A stretch of DNA of 32,775 nucleotides from a virus (lineage: Duplodnaviria > Heunggongvirae > Uroviricota > Caudoviricetes). The stretch lies in IMG/VR virus record IMGVR_UViG_2913152634_000001; one strand, 5' to 3'. The position numbers and the translations under genes were made by a program. The notes under the pieces were generated by a model. The model searched no databases and was not told where the DNA came from. It saw nothing but the letters and a program-made list of their open reading frames with translations. Of the stretch, positions 3,238-24,704 are shown in pieces (the first letter of the stretch is position 1; every line of letters begins with the position of its first letter).

Positions 3238-3509
3238 GTATTCGTATTGAAATTGGCGAACGTTATGTCGTTACCAGTGACAGCTTTCAGTTTATTCTCC
3301 ACGAGAAAAAGAGAGCTGAAAGCGGTAAAAACGCCGGTCAGGAATGGCTGGCGGTGGTTGGTTATTACCCGAAATTAAGCCAGCTCGTTTCCGGCCTGAT
3401 GCATCACGATATTCTGACCGGAAGCGCAAAGTCTTTTGCTGATTTAAACGCGCAGGTTGAGCAACTCAGCAAGCGTTGTTCAGAGGCTTTTGGCTCATAT
3501 GGCCGTTAA
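3234..3509 (+). CDS. hypothetical early protein
   Basis: 91-aa ORF overlapping the start of A; orf83-like position in P2. Confidence 0.5.
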   Translation: MSIRIEIGERYVVTSDSFQFILHEKKRAESGKNAGQEWLAVVGYYPKLSQLVSGLMHHDILTGSAKSFADLNAQVEQLSKRCSEAFGSYGR

Positions 3510-5814
3510 AGCCTCCGGGCGTTTTGTCCCTCCGTCAGCATTTGCCGCAGGCACCGGTAAGACGTTTACCGGTGCTTATGCATGGAACGCGCCACGCGAG
3601 GCTGTCGGGCGCGAAAGACCCCTTACACGTGACGAGATGCGTCAGGTGCAAGGTGTTTTATCCACGATTAACCGCCTGCCTTACTTTTTGCGCTCGCTGT
3701 TTACTTCACGCTATGACTACATCCGGCGCAATAAAAGCCCGGTGCACGGGTTTTATTTCCTCACATCCACTTTTCAGCGTCGTTTATGGCCGCGCATTGA
3801 GCGTGTGAATCAGCGCCATGAAATGAACACCGACGCGTCGTTGCTGTTTCTGGCAGAGCGTGACCACTATGCGCGCCTGCCTGGAATGAATGACAAGGAG
3901 CTGAAAAAGTTTGCCGCCCGTATCTCATCGCAGCTTTTCATAATGTATGAGGAACTCTGCGATGCCTGGGTGGATGCGCATGGCGAGAAAGAATCACTGT
4001 TTACGGATGAGGCGCAGGCTCACCTGTATGGTCATGTTGCTGGCGCTGCACGTGCTTTCAATATTTCCCCGCTCTACTGGAAAAAATACCGTAAAGGGCA
4101 GATGACCACGAGGCAGGCATATTCTTCCATTGCCCGTCTGTTTAACGATGAGTGGTGGACTCATCAGCTTAAAGGCCAGCGTATGCGCTGGCATGAGGCG
4201 TTACTGATTGCTGTCGGGGAGGTGAATAAAGACCGTTCTCCTTATGCCAGCAAACATGCCATTCGTGATGTACGTGCACGCCGCCAGGCAAATCTGGAAT
4301 TTCTTAAATCGTGTGACCTTGAAAACAGGGAAACCGGCGAGCGCATCGACCTTATCAGTAAGGTGATGGGCAGTATTTCTAATCCTGAAATTCGCCGGAT
4401 GGAGCTGATGAACACCATTGCTGGCATTGAGCGTTACGCCGCCGCAGAGGGTGATGTGGGGATGTTTATCACGCTGACCGCGCCGTCAAAGTATCACCCG
4501 ACACGTCAGGTCGGAAAAGGCGAAAGTAAAACCGTCCAGCTAAATCACGGCTGGAACGATGAGGCATTTAATCCAAAGGATGCGCAGCGTTATCTCTGCC
4601 ATATCTGGAGCCTGATGCGCACGGCATTCAAGGATAATGATTTACAGGTCTACGGTTTGCGTGTCGTCGAGCCACACCACGACGGAACGCCGCACTGGCA
4701 TATGATGCTTTTTTGTAATCCACGCCAGCGTAACCAGATTATTGAAATCATGCGTCGCTACGCGCTCAAAGAGGATGGCGACGAAAGAGGAGCTGCGCGA
4801 AACCGTTTTCAGGCAAAACACCTTAACCGGGGCGGTGCTGCGGGGTATATCGCGAAATACATCTCAAAAAACATCGATGGCTATGCACTGGATGGTCAGC
4901 TCGATAACGATACCGGCAGGCCGCTGAAAGACACTGCCGCGGCTGTTACCGCATGGGCGTCAACGTGGCGCATTCCGCAATTTAAAACGGTTGGCCTGCC
5001 GACAATGGGGGCTTACCGTGAACTACGCAAATTGCCGCGCGGCGTCAGCATTGCTGATGAGTTTGACGAGCGCGTCGAGGCTGCACGCGCCGCCGCAGAC
5101 AGTGGTGATTTTGCGTTGTATATCAGCGCGCAGGGTGGGGCAAATGTCCCGCGCGATCGTCAGACTGTCAGGGTCGCCCGTAGCCCGTCGGATGACGTTA
5201 ACGAGTACGAGGAAGAAGTCGAGAGAGTGATCGGCATTTACGCGCCGCATCTCGGCGCGCGTCATATTCATATCACCAGAACGACGGACTGGCGCATTGT
5301 GCCGAAAGTTCCGGTCGTTGAGCCTTTGACTTTAAAAAGCGGCATCGCCGCGCCTCGGAGTCCTGTCAATAACTGTGGAAAGCTCACCGGTGGTGATACT
5401 TCGTTATCGGCTCCCACACCGACTGAGCACGCCGCAGCAGTGCTTAATCTGGTTGATGAGGGTGTCATCGAATGGAGTGACCCGGAGGTCGTGAAGGCGC
5501 TCAGGGGCGCATTAAAACACAACCTGAGAACACCAAATCGTCAGCAAAGAAACGGAAGCCCGTTAAAACCATATGAAATGGCACCATCGGCCAGACTGAC
5601 CAGGTCGGAACGAATGCAAATTACCCGTATCCGTGTTGACCTTGCTCAAAAGGGTATCAGGCCGCAGCGATGGGAGCTCGAAGTGTTGGCACGAGGCGCT
5701 ACTGTTAGTTATGAGGGACAAAATTTTGCATTCACGGATAGCCATGACTGGAGTGGTTTTGCTGAACACTTGTGTAAGTTCACAGAGATATTGCAATTGC
5801 CTCCGGATAAGTAA
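3499..5814 (+). CDS. A: replication initiation protein A (rolling-circle nicking endonuclease)
   Basis: Large early ORF; start placed at the ATG at 3499 (MAVKASGRFVPPSAFAAGTGK, as I recall P2 gpA begins), giving 771 aa. The track ORF extends upstream to 3457. Confidence 0.9.
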   Translation: MAVKASGRFVPPSAFAAGTGKTFTGAYAWNAPREAVGRERPLTRDEMRQVQGVLSTINRLPYFLRSLFTSRYDYIRRNKSPVHGFYFLTSTFQRRLWPRIERVNQRHEMNTDASLLFLAERDHYARLPGMNDKELKKFAARISSQLFIMYEELCDAWVDAHGEKESLFTDEAQAHLYGHVAGAARAFNISPLYWKKYRKGQMTTRQAYSSIARLFNDEWWTHQLKGQRMRWHEALLIAVGEVNKDRSPYASKHAIRDVRARRQANLEFLKSCDLENRETGERIDLISKVMGSISNPEIRRMELMNTIAGIERYAAAEGDVGMFITLTAPSKYHPTRQVGKGESKTVQLNHGWNDEAFNPKDAQRYLCHIWSLMRTAFKDNDLQVYGLRVVEPHHDGTPHWHMMLFCNPRQRNQIIEIMRRYALKEDGDERGAARNRFQAKHLNRGGAAGYIAKYISKNIDGYALDGQLDNDTGRPLKDTAAAVTAWASTWRIPQFKTVGLPTMGAYRELRKLPRGVSIADEFDERVEAARAAADSGDFALYISAQGGANVPRDRQTVRVARSPSDDVNEYEEEVERVIGIYAPHLGARHIHITRTTDWRIVPKVPVVEPLTLKSGIAAPRSPVNNCGKLTGGDTSLSAPTPTEHAAAVLNLVDEGVIEWSDPEVVKALRGALKHNLRTPNRQQRNGSPLKPYEMAPSARLTRSERMQITRIRVDLAQKGIRPQRWELEVLARGATVSYEGQNFAFTDSHDWSGFAEHLCKFTEILQLPPDK

Positions 5815-5828
5815 GGGGAGATTGCACT

Positions 5829-6875
5829 ATGCAAATGCAGCATCTGATGGTTGGCTATCCTAAGTACTACCAAACGGCCGATTATGCGTTGAGGCTTTCA
5901 GTGATGGCTGATATAGCAACAATGAGAATGAAGGCTCTGCACTTCTGGGATAAACACGGTATTTCTGCAGCTTCTGAAGCCTTTGGCGTGTCCTGCCGCA
6001 CGCTTTACTGGTGGCGTCAGTTACTGAACAAGGAAGGACCTGAGGGGCTAATCCCGCACAGTAAGGCACCTCTGGTGCGACGAAAAAAACACTGGCATCC
6101 CGATGTGCTGAAAGAGATTCGACGCCTCAGGACAGAGCTGCCGAACCTCGGTAAAGAGCAGATTTTTGTTCGCCTGAAGCCCTGGTGCGAACAGCGCTAT
6201 CTGGCCTGTCCGAGTGTTTCCACCATCGGCAGAATGATCGCTGCCGCACATGATAAAATGCGGATGATACCTGTGCGTCTGGGATCGCGGGGGAAGGCAC
6301 TGCTTGTCAAAAAGCGGTCTGCCAAACCCCGCAGGCCAAAGCACTACCGCCCGGTAAAGACAGGTGAGCTCATTGGGATGGACGCCATTGAGCTCAGAAT
6401 GGGCGAACTGCGTCGCTATGTCATCACCATGATCGACGAATGCAGCAATTACGCGCTGGCACTGGCTGTGCCGTCACTCAACAGTGATATCGTCAATCAC
6501 TTCTTCAGCCGCGCAGCCCGGTTGTTCCCGGTCGGTATCAGCCAGATAATCACAGATAACGGAAAAGAGTTCCTGGGAAACTTCGACAAAACGCTGCAGG
6601 AAGCCGCTATCAAACACCTCTGGACCTATCCCTACACGCCAAAAATGAACGCTATCTGTGAACGTTTTAACCGGACGTTAAGAGAGCAGTTTATTGAATT
6701 TAATGAGATTTTACTCTTTGAAGATCTGGCGCTATTTAACCAGAAGCTGGCGGAATATCTGGTGCTGTATAACAGCAAAAGACCCCACAAGGCGCTCGCA
6801 CTAATGACGCCCGTGGAATATATTTTAAAAGAGAATAAAAATTGCAATATGTGGTGGACCCATACAACACTTTGA
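5829..6875 (+). CDS. DDE integrase-core (rve) transposase-like protein with N-terminal helix-turn-helix, IS481-like architecture
   Basis: 348-aa single ORF: N-terminal helix-turn-helix-like segment (GVSCRTLYWWRQ) and a DDE triad (GMDAIE ... ITDNGKEF ... NAICERFNRTLREQF). Strong Shine-Dalgarno AAGGGGAG at 5815-5822, immediately after the A stop. Not a gene of canonical P2. Confidence 0.75.
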   Translation: MQMQHLMVGYPKYYQTADYALRLSVMADIATMRMKALHFWDKHGISAASEAFGVSCRTLYWWRQLLNKEGPEGLIPHSKAPLVRRKKHWHPDVLKEIRRLRTELPNLGKEQIFVRLKPWCEQRYLACPSVSTIGRMIAAAHDKMRMIPVRLGSRGKALLVKKRSAKPRRPKHYRPVKTGELIGMDAIELRMGELRRYVITMIDECSNYALALAVPSLNSDIVNHFFSRAARLFPVGISQIITDNGKEFLGNFDKTLQEAAIKHLWTYPYTPKMNAICERFNRTLREQFIEFNEILLFEDLALFNQKLAEYLVLYNSKRPHKALALMTPVEYILKENKNCNMWWTHTTL

Positions 6876-7118
6876 TCTTTTTGAGTAATTACCATAAAAT
6901 GCTCAGGCTACCGCTTGGGATATCCCATGGAATGCTCAGTGTATACGCTTTATGCATAGGGTATAAAGGCTGCAATTGGCAACAATTGTGCTGACATGGA
7001 GATAAACTCATGTTGAAACTAGTGAGAGTACGTCAGTACAACCGCTATCGTTTCGGACGTTGGGAGACGGTGCGTAAACACCGCCGTTCTTACCCAACAC
7101 GATGAGATGATATGCGGC

Positions 7119-8867
7119 CTAAGCGGTAGTGTCTTCTATATTCTTTTTCTCTTCATACATTTTATTAAAATGTGAAATATCTCCCATAAGTCTAAATATC
7201 TCTTTAAATTGTGTGATGTATATGTCGGGTGTTATTTCACCCATATCTGTTATGTTTATCGAATCTGAGTGTGAACCTCTATTTATATATCTATAGAAAG
7301 CCTTGAAATTACTATTGCTTTCATTTTGTGCAAGCCTGTTCAATTCATCTTGTAACTCGTTAGTTTTATGAACAAATGCAAAGTAATATTCTAAGATGTT
7401 TCTCATTGTATTAGGGATAACTACATTGTGAACTTTTCCATCTCTGGCATCCTTGAGTATTTGCCATAAAGATTGATATTCATTTTGCAAACTATCTCTG
7501 CTGATGTTAGAAAAAGAACTATGTAGGTTTTTTGTTATTCTAAAAAGCTGATAGGTGCTATTGAATTTCCTTTCTGAAATTGGAGCTAACTTTATTAGCT
7601 CATGAAAAAAATATAGATTATGAGTGAGGATTATCACTTTATTAGCAGAAGTGAAAATGTCATAGTGAATCATCGATGCTATATCATAGATATAGTTCTG
7701 AGAGAGACTTGAAATAGGATCGTCAATGACGATTAAACTGTCTCGGTTGTCGAATTCATCTGTGTTTGTTTGTCCCTTACAATATTCAATAAAATAGAGA
7801 AATGTAATGAGAGTTTTTTCACCTTCGCTAAGAGATCTATATACATTTTTACTTGGTGTATTATCTGAGCGAACTATAACGAAACTATTTTTTATGGTTG
7901 GATGTTTATCAATGTAGAAACAGGTAATGCCAAGGTTTTTTAATTTTGAGTTTATCGAGGAGATTGTTGTGTCGATATTGGATGTTTTATTTCTTAATTC
8001 CTTTATTTCATCATCAGTGTGTTTGATTTCTTTGTTAATAGAATCAATGCTTTCTTCGAGACTCTTGATAATGATGTCGTTTTCGGCTTGAATTTTCTCT
8101 AAAACCTCAAAGTCTGTATTGCGGTAGTTTCTCAATGCTCCCCAAAACTGATTTTTTATTTTATCTTGAGTAAGGTTAAATTGTTTTACCTTTTCATTAA
8201 GGTCATTAATTCTAGAGTTATATTGTTTTATGTCTTTTAGAAGAGATTCCTCAATATCTTTATCTTTATCAAGAGTTACGCTGAGTGACGGGTTTTGTAT
8301 CTTGTTATTAATTAACTCAATGTTACTTTTTAGCATTTTCTCAAGGGAAGAAATGTGAGCAAGACTAGTTTTTCTTTCTTCAATTGAGATTGCTGTACAG
8401 TCATTTAACTGTGTTTTTAGTAATTGAAGTTGTTCTTGAGTAGTTAATTCATAAATATATTTTAATTTTTCAATTGATGTTATTTTCTGAGCGTAGCTCT
8501 CATCAAAAATTTGCTCGAGCGCCTCTGTGAATTTATCATCAATGGTTTCTTTTTGACAAAAAGGGCAAATGTCGCCAACTAAATAATTTTCTTTACCTTT
8601 TTTAACCCAATCGAGATTCTGAAGCTTTTTGATTGTTTCTGATAGATAGCTATTGCTAGAATCAATGACAGGAGTCTTTAATAAATTTTCATCATCAAAA
8701 GAAATAGGGTAAGGATTATATGGAGATATTGTTTGTATGGTGGTGTTTTTATGATTCAATAACTCTCTGTAGTCAGTTAATAATTGATTTAAATCTATAT
8801 CAGGTAATCTAATAGAAGACTTTACCTTTGTGAAAAGGTTTCTTTTATTCTTAAGGTACCCTGCCAT
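7119..8867 (-). CDS. C-terminal fragment of a frameshift-split RloC/PrrC-like ABC ATPase with putative nuclease domain
   Basis: 582-aa ORF in a strongly AT-rich island. Contains CPFC (CxxC) in a Lys/Glu-rich coiled-coil-like region, ABC signature-like SLSEGEK, Walker B SLIVIDDP, H-loop IILTHN, then a C-terminal domain with RNILE (Arg-x3-Glu) and downstream His. No Walker A in this fragment. The reading frame stays open upstream of the ATG to a stop at 8988-8990. Confidence 0.7.
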   Translation of the reverse strand: MAGYLKNKRNLFTKVKSSIRLPDIDLNQLLTDYRELLNHKNTTIQTISPYNPYPISFDDENLLKTPVIDSSNSYLSETIKKLQNLDWVKKGKENYLVGDICPFCQKETIDDKFTEALEQIFDESYAQKITSIEKLKYIYELTTQEQLQLLKTQLNDCTAISIEERKTSLAHISSLEKMLKSNIELINNKIQNPSLSVTLDKDKDIEESLLKDIKQYNSRINDLNEKVKQFNLTQDKIKNQFWGALRNYRNTDFEVLEKIQAENDIIIKSLEESIDSINKEIKHTDDEIKELRNKTSNIDTTISSINSKLKNLGITCFYIDKHPTIKNSFVIVRSDNTPSKNVYRSLSEGEKTLITFLYFIEYCKGQTNTDEFDNRDSLIVIDDPISSLSQNYIYDIASMIHYDIFTSANKVIILTHNLYFFHELIKLAPISERKFNSTYQLFRITKNLHSSFSNISRDSLQNEYQSLWQILKDARDGKVHNVVIPNTMRNILEYYFAFVHKTNELQDELNRLAQNESNSNFKAFYRYINRGSHSDSINITDMGEITPDIYITQFKEIFRLMGDISHFNKMYEEKKNIEDTTA

Positions 8868-8955
8868 TAATGAGTTGACATCAGAGTTTCTTATGTATTC
8901 GGTATTTAACCATATTGATTCAGTACAACTTGTTTCTGCATCATGATTGCGGTCT

Positions 8956-9327
8956 TTAATTTTTTTGATAATTTGTTTTTGTTGCCTCTAGTTTTATTTT
9001 TAATGTTTTAACTATTTCTCTTTTCTTACTTATCTCTTTTTCGATCTCGGTATTTTCTTTGCTTAATGTAAAAATCCCTTTTTGAACATCTTTATCAAAG
9101 AAGTTGTCTTCAATGAACTTTGTATTATAAACCAATGGACGATAGTTATTAATGTTTGTGCAGCGGCAGTCCCTATAGTCATCGTCTGCTGGATTATAGA
9201 AAAAATTTGATATGGTAGATTTCCCAGCTCCGTTTTGCCCGTAAAGGATATTTATTCTTTTTTCGAGGGATATTTTCGTATATTTATTTTTGTCGTAGCT
9301 TGTTACATTTTTTAGACTAAGTTCCAT
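8956..9327 (-). CDS. N-terminal fragment (Walker A P-loop) of the same split ABC ATPase gene
   Basis: 123-aa ORF with Walker A YGQNGAGKST at residues 29-38; it ends in a homopolymer tract (7 T on the plus strand, 8960-8966) where the downstream 582-aa frame is already open. The two ORFs are in different frames, consistent with one gene split by a 1-nt indel. Confidence 0.7.
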   Translation of the reverse strand: MELSLKNVTSYDKNKYTKISLEKRINILYGQNGAGKSTISNFFYNPADDDYRDCRCTNINNYRPLVYNTKFIEDNFFDKDVQKGIFTLSKENTEIEKEISKKREIVKTLKIKLEATKTNYQKN

Positions 9328-9569
9328 TTTTATTTTTCTCTATTGTTTGTGTGTGTATATATGAAAACTGGTCAAAAATTGCTCTGGAAAAGACATGGCA
9401 ATTACAAAAGATCTACCTTAGATGAGTAACATTTTCAAGCCACAGCTAAGCTTTCAGTTGCATGATTTTGCATTTGATTTTGTGGTCTAAAACCTAAGAT
9501 GAACACTTTGTTGGGTAAGGTGTGTGTATACGAATGCAACTGCATTAAAACCGCCCCGTGAAGCGGGCG

Positions 9570-9588
9570 GGCGAGGCGGGGAAAGCAC
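9570..9588. other. P2-type cos site (19-nt cohesive-end sequence)
   Basis: GGCGAGGCGGGGAAAGCAC at 9570-9588 matches the P2 cohesive-end sequence as I remember it, and lies at the expected map position between the old/tin locus and Q. Confidence 0.7.
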
Positions 9589-9730: not shown

Positions 9731-9752
9731 AAAAAAGCCGCCCGCAGGCGGC
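9731..9752 (-). terminator. rho-independent terminator downstream of Q (end of the P-Q operon)
   Basis: GC hairpin GCCGCC-CGCA-GGCGGC (9737-9752) followed on the minus strand by a run of 6 T (plus-strand AAAAAA at 9731-9736), directly after the Q stop at 9758. Confidence 0.6.
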
Positions 9753-9757
9753 GATGT

Positions 9758-10792
9758 TCAGCCGTTGTCAGTGTCCAGTGAGTAGTTTTTAAAGCGGATG
9801 ACCTCCTGACCGAGCCAGCCGTTTATCTCGCGGATCCTGTCCTGTAGCGGGATAAGCTCATTGCGGACAAAGACCTTTGCCACTTTCTCAATATCACCCA
9901 GCGACCCGACGTTCTCCGGCTTGCCGCCCATCAACTGAAAGGGGATGCGGTGCGCGTCCAGCAGGTCAGCGGCGCTGGCTTTTTTGATATTAAAAAAATC
10001 GTCCTTCGTCGCCACTTCACTGAGCGGGATAATTTTAATGCCGTCGGCTTTCCCCTGCGGGGCATAGAGAAACAGGTTTTTAAAGTTGTTGCGGCCTTTC
10101 GACTTCACCATGTTTTCGCGAAGCATTTCGATATCGTTGCGGTCCTGCACGGCATCGGTGACGTACATGATGTATCCGGCATGTGCGCCGTTTTCGTAAT
10201 ACTTGCGGCGGAACAGCGTGGCTGACTCATTCAGCCAGGCAGAGTTAAGGGCGCTGAGATATTCCGGCAGGCCGTACAGCTCCTGATTAATATCGGGCTC
10301 CAGCAGGTGAAACACGGAACCGGGCGCGAAGGCTGTCGGCTCGTTGAAGGACGGCACCCACCAGTAAACATCCTCCTCCACGCCACGGCGGGTATATTTT
10401 GCCGGTGAGGTTTCCAGTCTGATGACCTTACCGGTGGTGCTGTAACGCTTTTCCAGAAACGCATTACCGAAAACCAGAAAATCCAGCACAAAGCGGCTGA
10501 AATCCTGCTGGGAAAGCCACGGGTGCGGGATAAACGTTGAAGCCAGAATATTACGTTTGACGTAAATCGGTGAGCTGTGATGCACGGCAGCACGCAGACT
10601 TTTTGCCAGACCGGTAAAGCTGACCGGTGGCTCATACCATCTGCCGTTACTGATGCATTCGACGTAATCCAGAATGTCACGGCGGTCGAGTACCGGCACC
10701 GGTTCGCCAAAGGTGAATGCCTCCATTTTCGGGGCGCTGGCGGTCATTTTTTTTGCCGCAGGTTGCAGTGTTTTCCCTTTTTTCTTGCTCAT
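9758..10792 (-). CDS. Q: portal protein
   Basis: 344-aa minus-strand ORF; size and position match P2 gpQ; the ATG at 10790-10792 overlaps the stop of P. Confidence 0.9.
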   Translation of the reverse strand: MSKKKGKTLQPAAKKMTASAPKMEAFTFGEPVPVLDRRDILDYVECISNGRWYEPPVSFTGLAKSLRAAVHHSSPIYVKRNILASTFIPHPWLSQQDFSRFVLDFLVFGNAFLEKRYSTTGKVIRLETSPAKYTRRGVEEDVYWWVPSFNEPTAFAPGSVFHLLEPDINQELYGLPEYLSALNSAWLNESATLFRRKYYENGAHAGYIMYVTDAVQDRNDIEMLRENMVKSKGRNNFKNLFLYAPQGKADGIKIIPLSEVATKDDFFNIKKASAADLLDAHRIPFQLMGGKPENVGSLGDIEKVAKVFVRNELIPLQDRIREINGWLGQEVIRFKNYSLDTDNG

Positions 10793-19004: not shown

Positions 19005-19639
19005 ATGAACACTCTCGCAAATATCCAGGAACTCGCGCGCGCACTGCGCAACATGATTCGCACCGGCCTTGTCGTCGAAACCAACCTTAAAGCCGGTCGC
19101 TGCCGTGTGCAGACCGGCGGCATGTGCACCGACTGGCTTCAGTGGCTGACCTGTCGTGCCGGGCGTTCGCGCACATGGTGGGCACCTTCCGTGGGGAACA
19201 GGTGCTGATTCTGGCCGTGGGCGGTGAACTCGACACGGCGTTCGTTCTGCCGGGGATTTATTCCGGCGATAACCCCGCACCGTCTGCGTCGGCGGATGCC
19301 CTGCATATCCGTTTCCCTGACGGGGCGGTGATTGAGTATGAACCTGAAACCAGTGCGCTCACGGTAAGCGGAATTAAAACGGCCAGCGTGACGGCTTCTG
19401 ATTCTGTTACTGCCACGGTGCCGGTGGTCATGGTGAAAGCGTCAACCCGCATCACCCTGGACACACCGGAGGTGGTCTGCACCAACAGGCTGATTACCGG
19501 CACGCTGGAAGTACAGAAGGGCGGGACGATGCGCGGCAACATTGAACACACCGGCGGTGAACTCTCATCAAACGGTAAGGTACTGCATACCCATAAACAC
19601 CCCGGCGACAGCGGCGGCACAACCGGGGGACCTCTATGA
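19005..19639 (+). pseudogene. V: baseplate spike protein V, interrupted by a 1-nt frameshift
   Basis: ORF 19005..19208 (MNTLANIQELARALRNMIRTG...TWWAPSVG) and ORF 19124..19639 (...EQVLILAVGGELDTAFVLPGIYSG...) are two frames of one gene. The span is 635 nt, one short of the 636 nt needed for 211 aa plus stop (P2 gpV length as recalled). The frames switch at the GGGG run at 19193-19196. Confidence 0.8.
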
Positions 19640-24110: not shown

Positions 24111-24704
24111 ATGTTTACTAAGCGACGATTAAAAAATATTAATTGGGAGGCAAGTTCAGTGATTCTTGCTATGGTTCTCTTTATTGGAAATATATTTTAT
24201 ACGAATCATCGTGATGATATAAGCATGGAGGCTGAGAGAGACAGTATCAGAACAATGTTTGCATATGAAATCGCTAATAACCATCGCGCTCTCACTTTTC
24301 TTGATAAAACGAGAAATATTGGCTTTGACGAAAATTCGGAGCATTTTGTTGGCGAGCCTTTTGCCATTAATGTCAAATCATTAGGAGGGCCTCGCTTACA
24401 GATTGCATTAAACCAGACTGATAAAGTTTTTAAAGCCTACTTCAGTGAATTAAGTAAACTTGATAAAGAGGATGTTACTCTTCTTATGGACTATTACCAT
24501 GAGCAAAGCATCCTGCTGGAGTGTGTAAAATCTACGTTACAGAAGATGAAAAGTAGTAATGATATTAAAGTTGATATTGATGGTTACTTATTAGAAGAAC
24601 ACTTCATGAATGAGTTTAATCTTTCTAATATTTTGCTTAAACGCTATAGCCATTTGTTGTCACAACACCCAAAAAAACCTGAAACAAAAGATTTACATAA
24701 TTGA
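24111..24704 (+). CDS. orphan membrane-anchored protein in the Z/fun-position moron island
   Basis: 197-aa ORF with Shine-Dalgarno AAGGTG; one N-terminal hydrophobic helix (SSVILAMVLFIGNIFY) then a soluble domain; AT-rich relative to the flanking G and FI genes; no motif recognised. Confidence 0.7.
   Translation: MFTKRRLKNINWEASSVILAMVLFIGNIFYTNHRDDISMEAERDSIRTMFAYEIANNHRALTFLDKTRNIGFDENSEHFVGEPFAINVKSLGGPRLQIALNQTDKVFKAYFSELSKLDKEDVTLLMDYYHEQSILLECVKSTLQKMKSSNDIKVDIDGYLLEEHFMNEFNLSNILLKRYSHLLSQHPKKPETKDLHN

Follow-up and report, generated by a model that had tools for sequence, protein, structure and literature searches.

A frameshifted RloC-family gene, a predicted suicide tRNase, at the A-to-cos hotspot of a P2-like Escherichia coli prophage

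We examined a 32,775-nucleotide stretch of viral DNA (IMG/VR virus record IMGVR_UViG_2913152634_000001; Caudoviricetes), hereafter the window, and in it a gene at positions 7119-9327 on the minus strand. This gene is very likely a prophage moron which encodes an RloC-family ATPase-hook-nuclease protein serving as a suicide tRNase defence, and in this copy it is frameshifted. An initial annotation, made from the letters alone, had described it as AT-rich cargo of the tin/old hotspot on the strand opposite the early operon. The description was accurate: in phage P2 the A-to-cos slot is occupied by tin and old, and here the RloC-family gene lies between gene A and cos, opposite to the early operon, with a G+C content of 30.5% as compared with 56% in the neighboring genes Q and P.

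Gene structure and frameshift

The gene is present as two open reading frames (ORFs) of 123 and 582 aa within 7119-9327, both on the minus strand:

7119..9327, minus strand: whole RloC-family gene, a pseudogene here; the repaired product has 735 aa and is identical to WP_021038201.1
8956..9327, minus strand: ORF1, 123 aa plus stop, N-terminal lobe of the ATP-binding cassette (ABC) head with Walker A; phrog_2801 positions 1-122
7119..8867, minus strand: ORF2, 582 aa plus stop, start at Met154; phrog_2801 positions 154-735
8960..8966, minus strand: A7 homopolymer at which the frame shifts; A6 in intact alleles, read CAA AAA ATT = Q-K-I

The two ORFs matched phrog_2801 (735 positions, function unknown; E 3e-287) in collinear order, and are therefore halves of one gene. 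They are divided by a +1 frameshift in the A7 run (8960-8966). Due to the extra A, ORF1 terminates as ...YQKN*, and this end (...TNYQKN*) falls within TATCAAAAAAATTAAAGACC. The frame of ORF2 is open from the A-run at ~8959, where it reads ...IKDRNHDAETS; ORF2 encodes what remains of the coiled-coil insert together with the CxxC, then the C-terminal half of the ABC head, and finally the putative nuclease domain.

Deletion of one A in silico yielded a single 735-aa ORF, exactly the length that had been estimated initially (about 735 aa across the frameshift). Residue for residue, the repaired protein was WP_021038201.1, an intact "AAA family ATPase" annotated at the corresponding position of E. 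coli PMV-1. The window was 100% identical to the chromosome of E. coli RM14723 (NZ_CP027103.1) over the 17.5 kb compared, and the Prokaryotic Genome Annotation Pipeline annotation of RM14723 reports the gene as "AAA family ATPase, frameshifted", a pseudogene. The window copy is a pseudogene with no intact ORF: the A6-to-A7 slip at codon 122 parts the Walker A lobe from the remainder and inactivates the gene, and full-length protein from this copy could amount to a trace at most.

Conserved motifs

The initial annotation had listed Walker A, CPFC, SLSEGEK, SLIVIDDP, an H-loop, RNILE and a downstream His. All of these were found where it had placed them, and were conserved in an alignment of 38 homologs (69% down to 18% identity; lengths 714-811 aa), to which the following counts refer (residues are numbered on the repaired protein):

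9214..9240, minus strand: Walker A / P-loop GQNGAGKST, residues 30-38; G30, N32, G35 and K36 invariant
8556..8567, minus strand: CPFC, residues 254-257, zinc-hook-like CxxC; C254 and C257 invariant, P255 and F256 in 37 of 38
7815..7835, minus strand: ABC signature SLSEGEK, residues 498-504; S500, G502 and E503 invariant
7716..7739, minus strand: Walker B / D-loop SLIVIDDP, residues 530-537; D535, D536 and P537 invariant
7617..7631, minus strand: H-loop ILTHN, residues 566-570; H569 invariant
7149..7499, minus strand: C-terminal all-alpha domain, about residues 610-726, putative anticodon nuclease (PrrC/RloC-type, HEPN-like)
7389..7403, minus strand: R642-N-I-L-E646, Arg-x3-Glu of the predicted catalytic triad; R642 and E646 in 38 of 38
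7269..7274, minus strand: S685-H686, predicted catalytic His, 39 residues past E646; H686 in 36 and S685 in 35 of 38

Walker A and the signature are separated by a helical insert of ~375 aa which carries the invariant CPFC. The C-terminal pattern is R642-x3-E646-x39-S685-H686, with RGSHS at residues 683-687, and the Glu-to-His spacing ranges from 35 to 45 across the family; H719 is also invariant. The distance from the CxxC to the predicted catalytic Arg is 385 aa, versus 401 aa in GkaRloC (C291, R692). Judged from the alignment, the motifs are not chance matches.

At Walker B (7716-7724, residues 535-537) Asp-Asp-Pro, within VIDDP, was found in all 38 homologs, as opposed to the Asp-Glu usual for ABC ATPases; therefore the catalytic base may be unusual in the RloC-like family.

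Family membership

The initial annotation had proposed in silico repair of the frameshift followed by profile searches. Both supported its assignment: residues 10-711 of the repaired protein matched positions 4-712 (of 713) of Pfam AAA_13 (E 2.2e-110), and the PADLOC candidate PDC-S06 (model PDLC04886) matched over its full length (E 1.5e-249). The C-terminal part on its own was also recognized: the last 126-161 residues matched the C-terminal portion of AAA_13 (E 1e-18 to 5e-17), and the last ~125 aa alone aligned to positions 587-712 (E 1e-18). Therefore the Pfam family takes in the C-terminal domain. According to its Pfam description, AAA_13 includes PrrC. A search of NCBIfam returned nothing specific.

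Named relatives pointed in the same direction. Six family members are labelled "wobble nucleotide-excising tRNase" by the Joint Genome Institute (JGI), and one of these shares 28% identity with the repaired protein over 95% of its length (E 1.5e-53). A protein search started from a JGI-labelled RloC (P0085) did not retrieve the Geobacillus and Acinetobacter RloC. A Campylobacter jejuni homolog (P0143, 729 aa) is 35% identical from end to end (E 4e-116), and every motif aligned (CPFCQK.TI, LSEGEKT, VIDDPISSLS, MRNILE and YRYINRxSHSD). In C. jejuni the gene for this homolog is flanked by hsdS and hsdR in a type I restriction-modification (R-M) locus, the setting of a "restriction-linked orf" between hsd genes from which rloC took its name (PMC2610378), whereas the window gene has no R-M neighbor and is found in a phage hotspot. 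Taken together, these comparisons support an RloC-family gene, neither PrrC nor of the OLD type.

Comparison with known systems

RloC was defined by Davidov & Kaufmann (2008; PMC2610378) as a protein with i) PrrC-like ABC ATPase motifs; ii) a coiled-coil insert with a central CX2C zinc hook, as in Rad50; and iii) a C-terminal Arg-X3-Glu-X36-52-His, with Ser often before the His. Lengths range from 658 to 897 aa and linkage to R-M is only rare (PMC2610378, Table 1). In GkaRloC the corresponding residues are C291, R692, E696 and H737; mutation of the triad ends tRNA cleavage, while mutation of the hook activates it (PMC2610378). The repaired protein displays every one of the sequence-level features (735 aa, the ABC motifs, an insert with CX2C, and R-x3-E-x39-SH), and the RloC architecture initially proposed is thus upheld by the end-to-end AAA_13 match, the CxxC, the spacing of Arg-x3-Glu and Ser-His and the Rad50-like model of a homolog (see below). 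It shares with RloC the size class, the ABC motifs, the helical CX2C insert, the Arg-x3-Glu...(Ser)His and the organization as a single gene without a linked silencer. It differs in that its clade is cargo of P2-like prophages of Enterobacteriaceae and in that the window copy is frameshifted. From system #5 of the P2 hotspot, PDC-S06 and phrog_2801, which are the same family at the same locus, there is no substantive difference except for the A7 run.

E. coli PrrC, a tRNase of abortive infection, likewise combines an N-terminal ABC ATPase domain with a C-terminal anticodon nuclease Arg-x3-Glu...His (R320, E324, H356). However, it has ~400 aa and no coiled-coil or zinc-hook insert, whereas the window gene encodes an insert of ~375 aa with CPFC. 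Moreover, PrrC invariably accompanies a type Ic R-M system that keeps it silent (PMC2610378, PMC3458546), while the window gene has no hsd linkage. Membership in PrrC was rejected on account of the ~375-aa CPFC insert and the lack of hsd genes in the prophage.

P2 Old occupies the same A-to-cos slot and also fuses an ABC ATPase sensor to a nuclease effector; it has been described as a DNA-activated abortive tRNase made of an ABC ATPase and TOPRIM (2026 preprint, 10.64898/2026.07.10.737580). Its effector is TOPRIM, whereas the window protein has no TOPRIM or DxD match and its head is of the Rad50/SMC type with a long coiled coil. By this comparison, Old and the RloC-like protein would be functional analogues with different effector folds. 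In Rad50 and SbcC, too, an antiparallel coiled coil that bears a CxxC hook at its apex splits the ABC head, and Rad50 was the best structural match; on the other hand, they lack a C-terminal nuclease domain, their partner being Mre11 or SbcD, and the insert of the window protein is much shorter than theirs.

That the protein lacks TOPRIM and falls outside the Old family had also been argued at the outset, and this was borne out: no Pfam TOPRIM match was found in the repaired protein, and no search assigned it to OLD, Gabija or PARIS. AriA matched at the level of P-loop and signature only (E 3e-5 in PADLOC; 0.05 in PDB), and the PADLOC models of PtuA and LmuB gave weak or partial matches. Membership in OLD, Gabija or PARIS was rejected: there is no TOPRIM, no such assignment and no second gene in the cassette.

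Proposed function

We propose that the intact protein would consist of three parts: a Rad50-like ABC ATPase head, a CxxC zinc-hook insert of ~375 aa and a C-terminal anticodon nuclease of the PrrC/RloC type (HEPN-like) with the predicted triad R642/E646/H686. In the lysogen it would stay silent, held by its own ATPase and zinc-hook switch, as may be expected from the Geobacillus and Acinetobacter RloC. DNA ends or damage caused by a superinfecting phage would be sensed via the Rad50-like head and the hook. Once activated, the protein would cut tRNA anticodon loops (RloC excises the wobble nucleotide), so that translation would stop and the infection would be aborted.

The model draws on studies of RloC from other hosts. 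In GkaRloC the ATPase activates the nuclease, DNA is required, and zinc-hook mutations short-circuit the switch (PMC3458546); in A. baylyi, RloC is activated by an inducer of DNA breaks (PMC3874168). By analogy with these proteins, we infer that members of the P2-borne clade bind zinc, sense DNA, cleave tRNA and exclude phages. As the ATPase is needed for activation in GkaRloC, the nuclease of the window copy should stay off without the Walker A lobe.

Spread of the A7 allele

The P2-borne gene was found in 61-62 of 5426 complete E. coli genomes, in two allele groups and as a single-gene A-to-cos cassette. Among the 17 full-length copies of the window allele group in these genomes, A7 was present in RM14723 alone. 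Beyond this set, the exact A7-specific product of 123 aa was encoded on at least 24 contigs (39 index blocks) of NCBI, Logan and ENA assemblies, including complete Salmonella genomes and one metagenome, and some of these contigs had the same insertion sequence (IS) and zero mismatches to the window; one exact intact sequence, by comparison, was found on 158 contigs. All seven loci retrieved had A7, and ORF2 was otherwise intact in six of them. Two haplotypes carried the A7 run. The E. coli type did not differ from the window (0 differences), and the Salmonella type differed from it at 10 nt, located on both sides of the run. Both haplotypes have closely related A6 relatives, and in an allele of 93.6% identity the A-run is altogether absent. 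The occurrence of A7 on at least 24 independent contigs and on two haplotypes indicates that the frameshift is real and not an assembly error, and its spread implies either repeated slippage of the tract or an old, widespread allele.

The Salmonella-type A7 loci (L007, L009, L010 and L012) reside in P2-like prophages of S. enterica (e.g., complete genomes of serovar Mbandaka); one of them, L010, carries a second frameshift. In the sister allele (~51% identical; WP_074568416 / WP_000423308), which occupies the same P2 slot, 4 of 44 copies are split into two coding sequences and 2 of 44 are 3'-truncated, including that of the E. coli type strain ATCC 11775 (disruptions seen among the E. coli genome matches H40, H64, H65, H67, H68 and H69). 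Disruption of the gene family is common. Such frequent breakage (recurrent A7, second frameshifts, split or truncated sister alleles and IS elements inserted on either side) would be expected of a function that is costly and self-toxic, and the broken copies could help to show how cargo of this kind is lost from prophages.

In Salmonella draft assemblies the gene was represented by dozens of "partial" fragments with varied lengths (P0102-P0126). Contigs evidently often break within this gene of 30% G+C, and defence surveys of draft genomes may undercount it.

The same data bear on a different and unlikely account of the A7 allele, namely that it is leaky or switchable, with slippage giving some full-length protein or with a reversible A6/A7 change acting as an on/off switch. 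RNA polymerase slippage, or a +1 slip of tRNA-Lys on AAA-A, would then recreate the wild-type sequence: a +1 slip at CAA-AAA-A reads Q-K-I-K-D, exactly as in the intact protein. Consistent with such leakiness or switching are the presence of A7 on two haplotypes that each have near A6 relatives, its frequency (at least 24 contigs versus 158 for one intact sequence) and the otherwise intact ORF2 in six of seven loci. However, a 7-nt run is short for efficient slippage in enterobacteria, transcriptional slippage being usually seen at runs of 9 or more, and no stimulatory structure was found. Moreover, i) one A7 copy (L010) has acquired a second frameshift, as decay predicts; ii) the same prophage contains another frameshifted gene and an IS insertion; iii) the ~93.6%-identical allele has no A-run; and iv) selection against a costly suicide gene is a simpler account of recurrent nulls. 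It is doubtful that the A6/A7 tract is a recurrent slip site which tunes or toggles a toxic prophage tRNase, with trace full-length protein or reversion under phage pressure; if it were, the toggle would control the gene in the manner of a contingency locus, a mode that has not been described for anticodon nucleases.

Predicted structure and the C-terminal domain

The initial annotation had anticipated a Rad50-like hook together with a HEPN-like C-terminal domain, and structure prediction bore out the former. In the AlphaFold2 model of a full-length homolog with 69% identity (P0002; mean predicted local distance difference test (pLDDT) score 82.9), a beta/P-loop lobe (1-77) and the second half of the ABC head (471-570) are joined by helices at 90-247 (a long one at 90-141, then shorter ones) and 264-448, which flank a non-helical CPFC loop (248-263); the C-terminal domain (618-726) is all-helical. 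The best Foldseek matches of this model in PDB were Rad50 (7zr1, E 2e-6), SMC heads with coiled coils, Lamassu LmuB and retron/Septu PtuA. The model thus supports a Rad50-like head, as opposed to one of the OLD type, and a hook loop.

The HEPN-like fold had been overstated. The C-terminal domain of the window protein itself (residues 575-735) was predicted to be all-helical with a pLDDT of 76, and its Foldseek search gave nothing significant. Sequence and profile searches of PDB detected no solved relative of this domain, only P-loop matches to Rad50, SMC and AriA and coiled-coil noise, and a Pfam scan of the domain gave no HEPN match. Since the fold search of the domain gave no convincing match, the assignment to HEPN is based on the conserved residues and on the work of Anantharaman et al. 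(2013; PMC3710099).

Several points weigh against an RloC-type suicide nuclease: i) the structural model is that of P0002, not of the window's own protein; ii) the HEPN motif Rx4-6H is present here as R679-x6-H686, yet R679 occurs in just 25 of the 38 homologs; iii) homology to the biochemically characterized GkaRloC and E. coli PrrC is indirect, by way of named relatives; iv) Anantharaman et al. (2013; PMC3710099) set a prophage-borne "APECO1_4465" group of ABC-HEPN proteins apart from RloC-like proteins proper, and the protein may belong to this sister group, a suspicion raised because the same slot of avian pathogenic E. coli (APEC) O1 holds the sister allele; and v) we found no experimental test of the P2-borne clade in the literature, RloC was listed as "not tested" in a recent screen, and among the evaluated systems in the searched portion of the supplementary text of Rousset et al. 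(2022) an AAA_13/RloC-like system was absent.

A few findings favor another view, namely that the product is an SMC/Rad50-like ATPase with another role (DNA binding or repair, prophage maintenance, or sensing for a separate effector) and that its C-terminal domain is no tRNA nuclease. Besides the lack of a significant nuclease match in the fold searches of that domain, Rad50, SMC, LmuB and PtuA, to which the ATPase bears a resemblance, act together with separate nucleases, and non-defence cargo such as partition systems is found in ~1/4 of P2 hotspots (PMC9122126). We nevertheless regard this view as very unlikely. R642, E646 and H686 stand at the spacing of the mutationally proven triads of RloC and PrrC and are conserved down to 18% identity; the C-terminal domain lies within the same AAA_13 model from end to end; homologs are found inside type I R-M loci, like rloC; and the cassette holds this gene alone.

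Previous records and significance

The initial annotation had ranked the gene as the strongest candidate for an uncharacterised anti-phage module, and here it went too far. The exact protein is already catalogued as cargo of the P2 hotspot under an "RloC-like" label, and PADLOC holds the family as PDC-S06. In their analysis of 18,150 P2 A-to-Q loci, Rousset et al. (2022; PMC9122126) listed WP_021038201 as "AAA_13" cargo (Table S5A) and reported a System 5, AAA_13, with 420 occurrences and the remark "RloC-like", represented by the ~93%-identical allele (Table S5B). One preprint considered an E. coli PDC-S06 ATPase a likely true defence protein, and prophage-borne ABC-HEPN proteins in avian pathogenic E. 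coli had been noted earlier (Anantharaman et al. 2013; PMC3710099). The reading of the gene is correct and the annotation sound, but the finding is already catalogued and is no new discovery: the RloC family was defined and biochemically characterized between 2008 and 2013 (Davidov & Kaufmann 2008; Klaiman 2012, 2013), and as the fifth most common A-to-cos cargo the system was tabulated in 2022 and is already flagged by PADLOC. Given that old, which shares the slot, is reported to encode a DNA-activated tRNase, the hotspot may repeatedly recruit suicide modules of the "ABC sensor plus tRNase" kind with different nuclease folds.

The locus in the prophage

The neighbors of the RloC-family gene are P2 gene A (3499-5814, plus strand), an IS, cos (9570-9588) and the portal gene Q (9758-10792, minus strand), and there are no hsd genes in the prophage. 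Three further features delimit the cassette:

9570..9588, plus strand: P2 cos 19-mer GGCGAGGCGGGGAAAGCAC, right-hand landmark of the hotspot; exact match, 0 expected by chance
6866..9533, strand not assigned: variable single-gene cassette of the hotspot, IS excluded, from the backbone comparison with APEC O1; G+C ~30%
5772..6865, plus strand: IS481-family element of 1094 bp, transposase ORF 5829-6875; in the 3' end of gene A, absent in PMV-1

Backbone homology to the P2-like prophage of APEC O1 stops at ~5725 and returns at ~9534, and between these breakpoints the window gene and the APEC O1 version have a DNA identity of 66-72%. The RloC-family gene is the sole cargo of the A-to-cos hotspot here, with no second gene in the cassette; it shows both marks of hotspot cargo, i.e., a position between A and cos/Q and a composition unlike that of the backbone. 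A search of the phage collection gave no nucleotide match.

The IS481-family element is outside the RloC-family gene, but it is part of the decay of the locus. In RM14723 the gene for baseplate assembly protein V (19005-19639, plus strand) carries a frameshift annotation as well. This and the IS in gene A point to a prophage that is in decay and probably defective, or else to residual homopolymer errors of the assembly. For the RloC-family gene itself, a sequencing or assembly error in RM14723, with the gene intact there, was rejected as extremely improbable: although a single-base homopolymer difference is a typical long-read error, A7 is found in only 1 of 17 full-length copies from complete E. 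coli genomes and a second gene of the prophage is also annotated as frameshifted, the A7-specific 123-aa product occurs on at least 24 contigs of independent NCBI, Logan (short-read) and ENA assemblies, some of which also contain the IS and match the window without a mismatch.

A scan of the AT-rich DNA for promoters gave 13 promoter-like matches versus 11.7 expected, with no convincing sigma-70 promoter upstream of the start, and searches of the cassette for Rfam families and meaningful repeats found none.

A second AT-rich island (24111-24704, plus strand; 35-37% G+C) was found at the P2 Z/fun hotspot, flanked by genes for tail-fibre assembly and the tail sheath. It encodes a hypothetical protein of 197 aa (WP_032301962.1) with no Pfam or PADLOC match, and is a candidate cargo gene.

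Two sites with a G+C-rich hairpin and a T-run were found on the minus strand at 9551-9570 and 9737-9752, one abutting the cos 19-mer and the other directly after the Q stop. Together, the two hairpins would insulate the cargo gene from read-through of the late operon.

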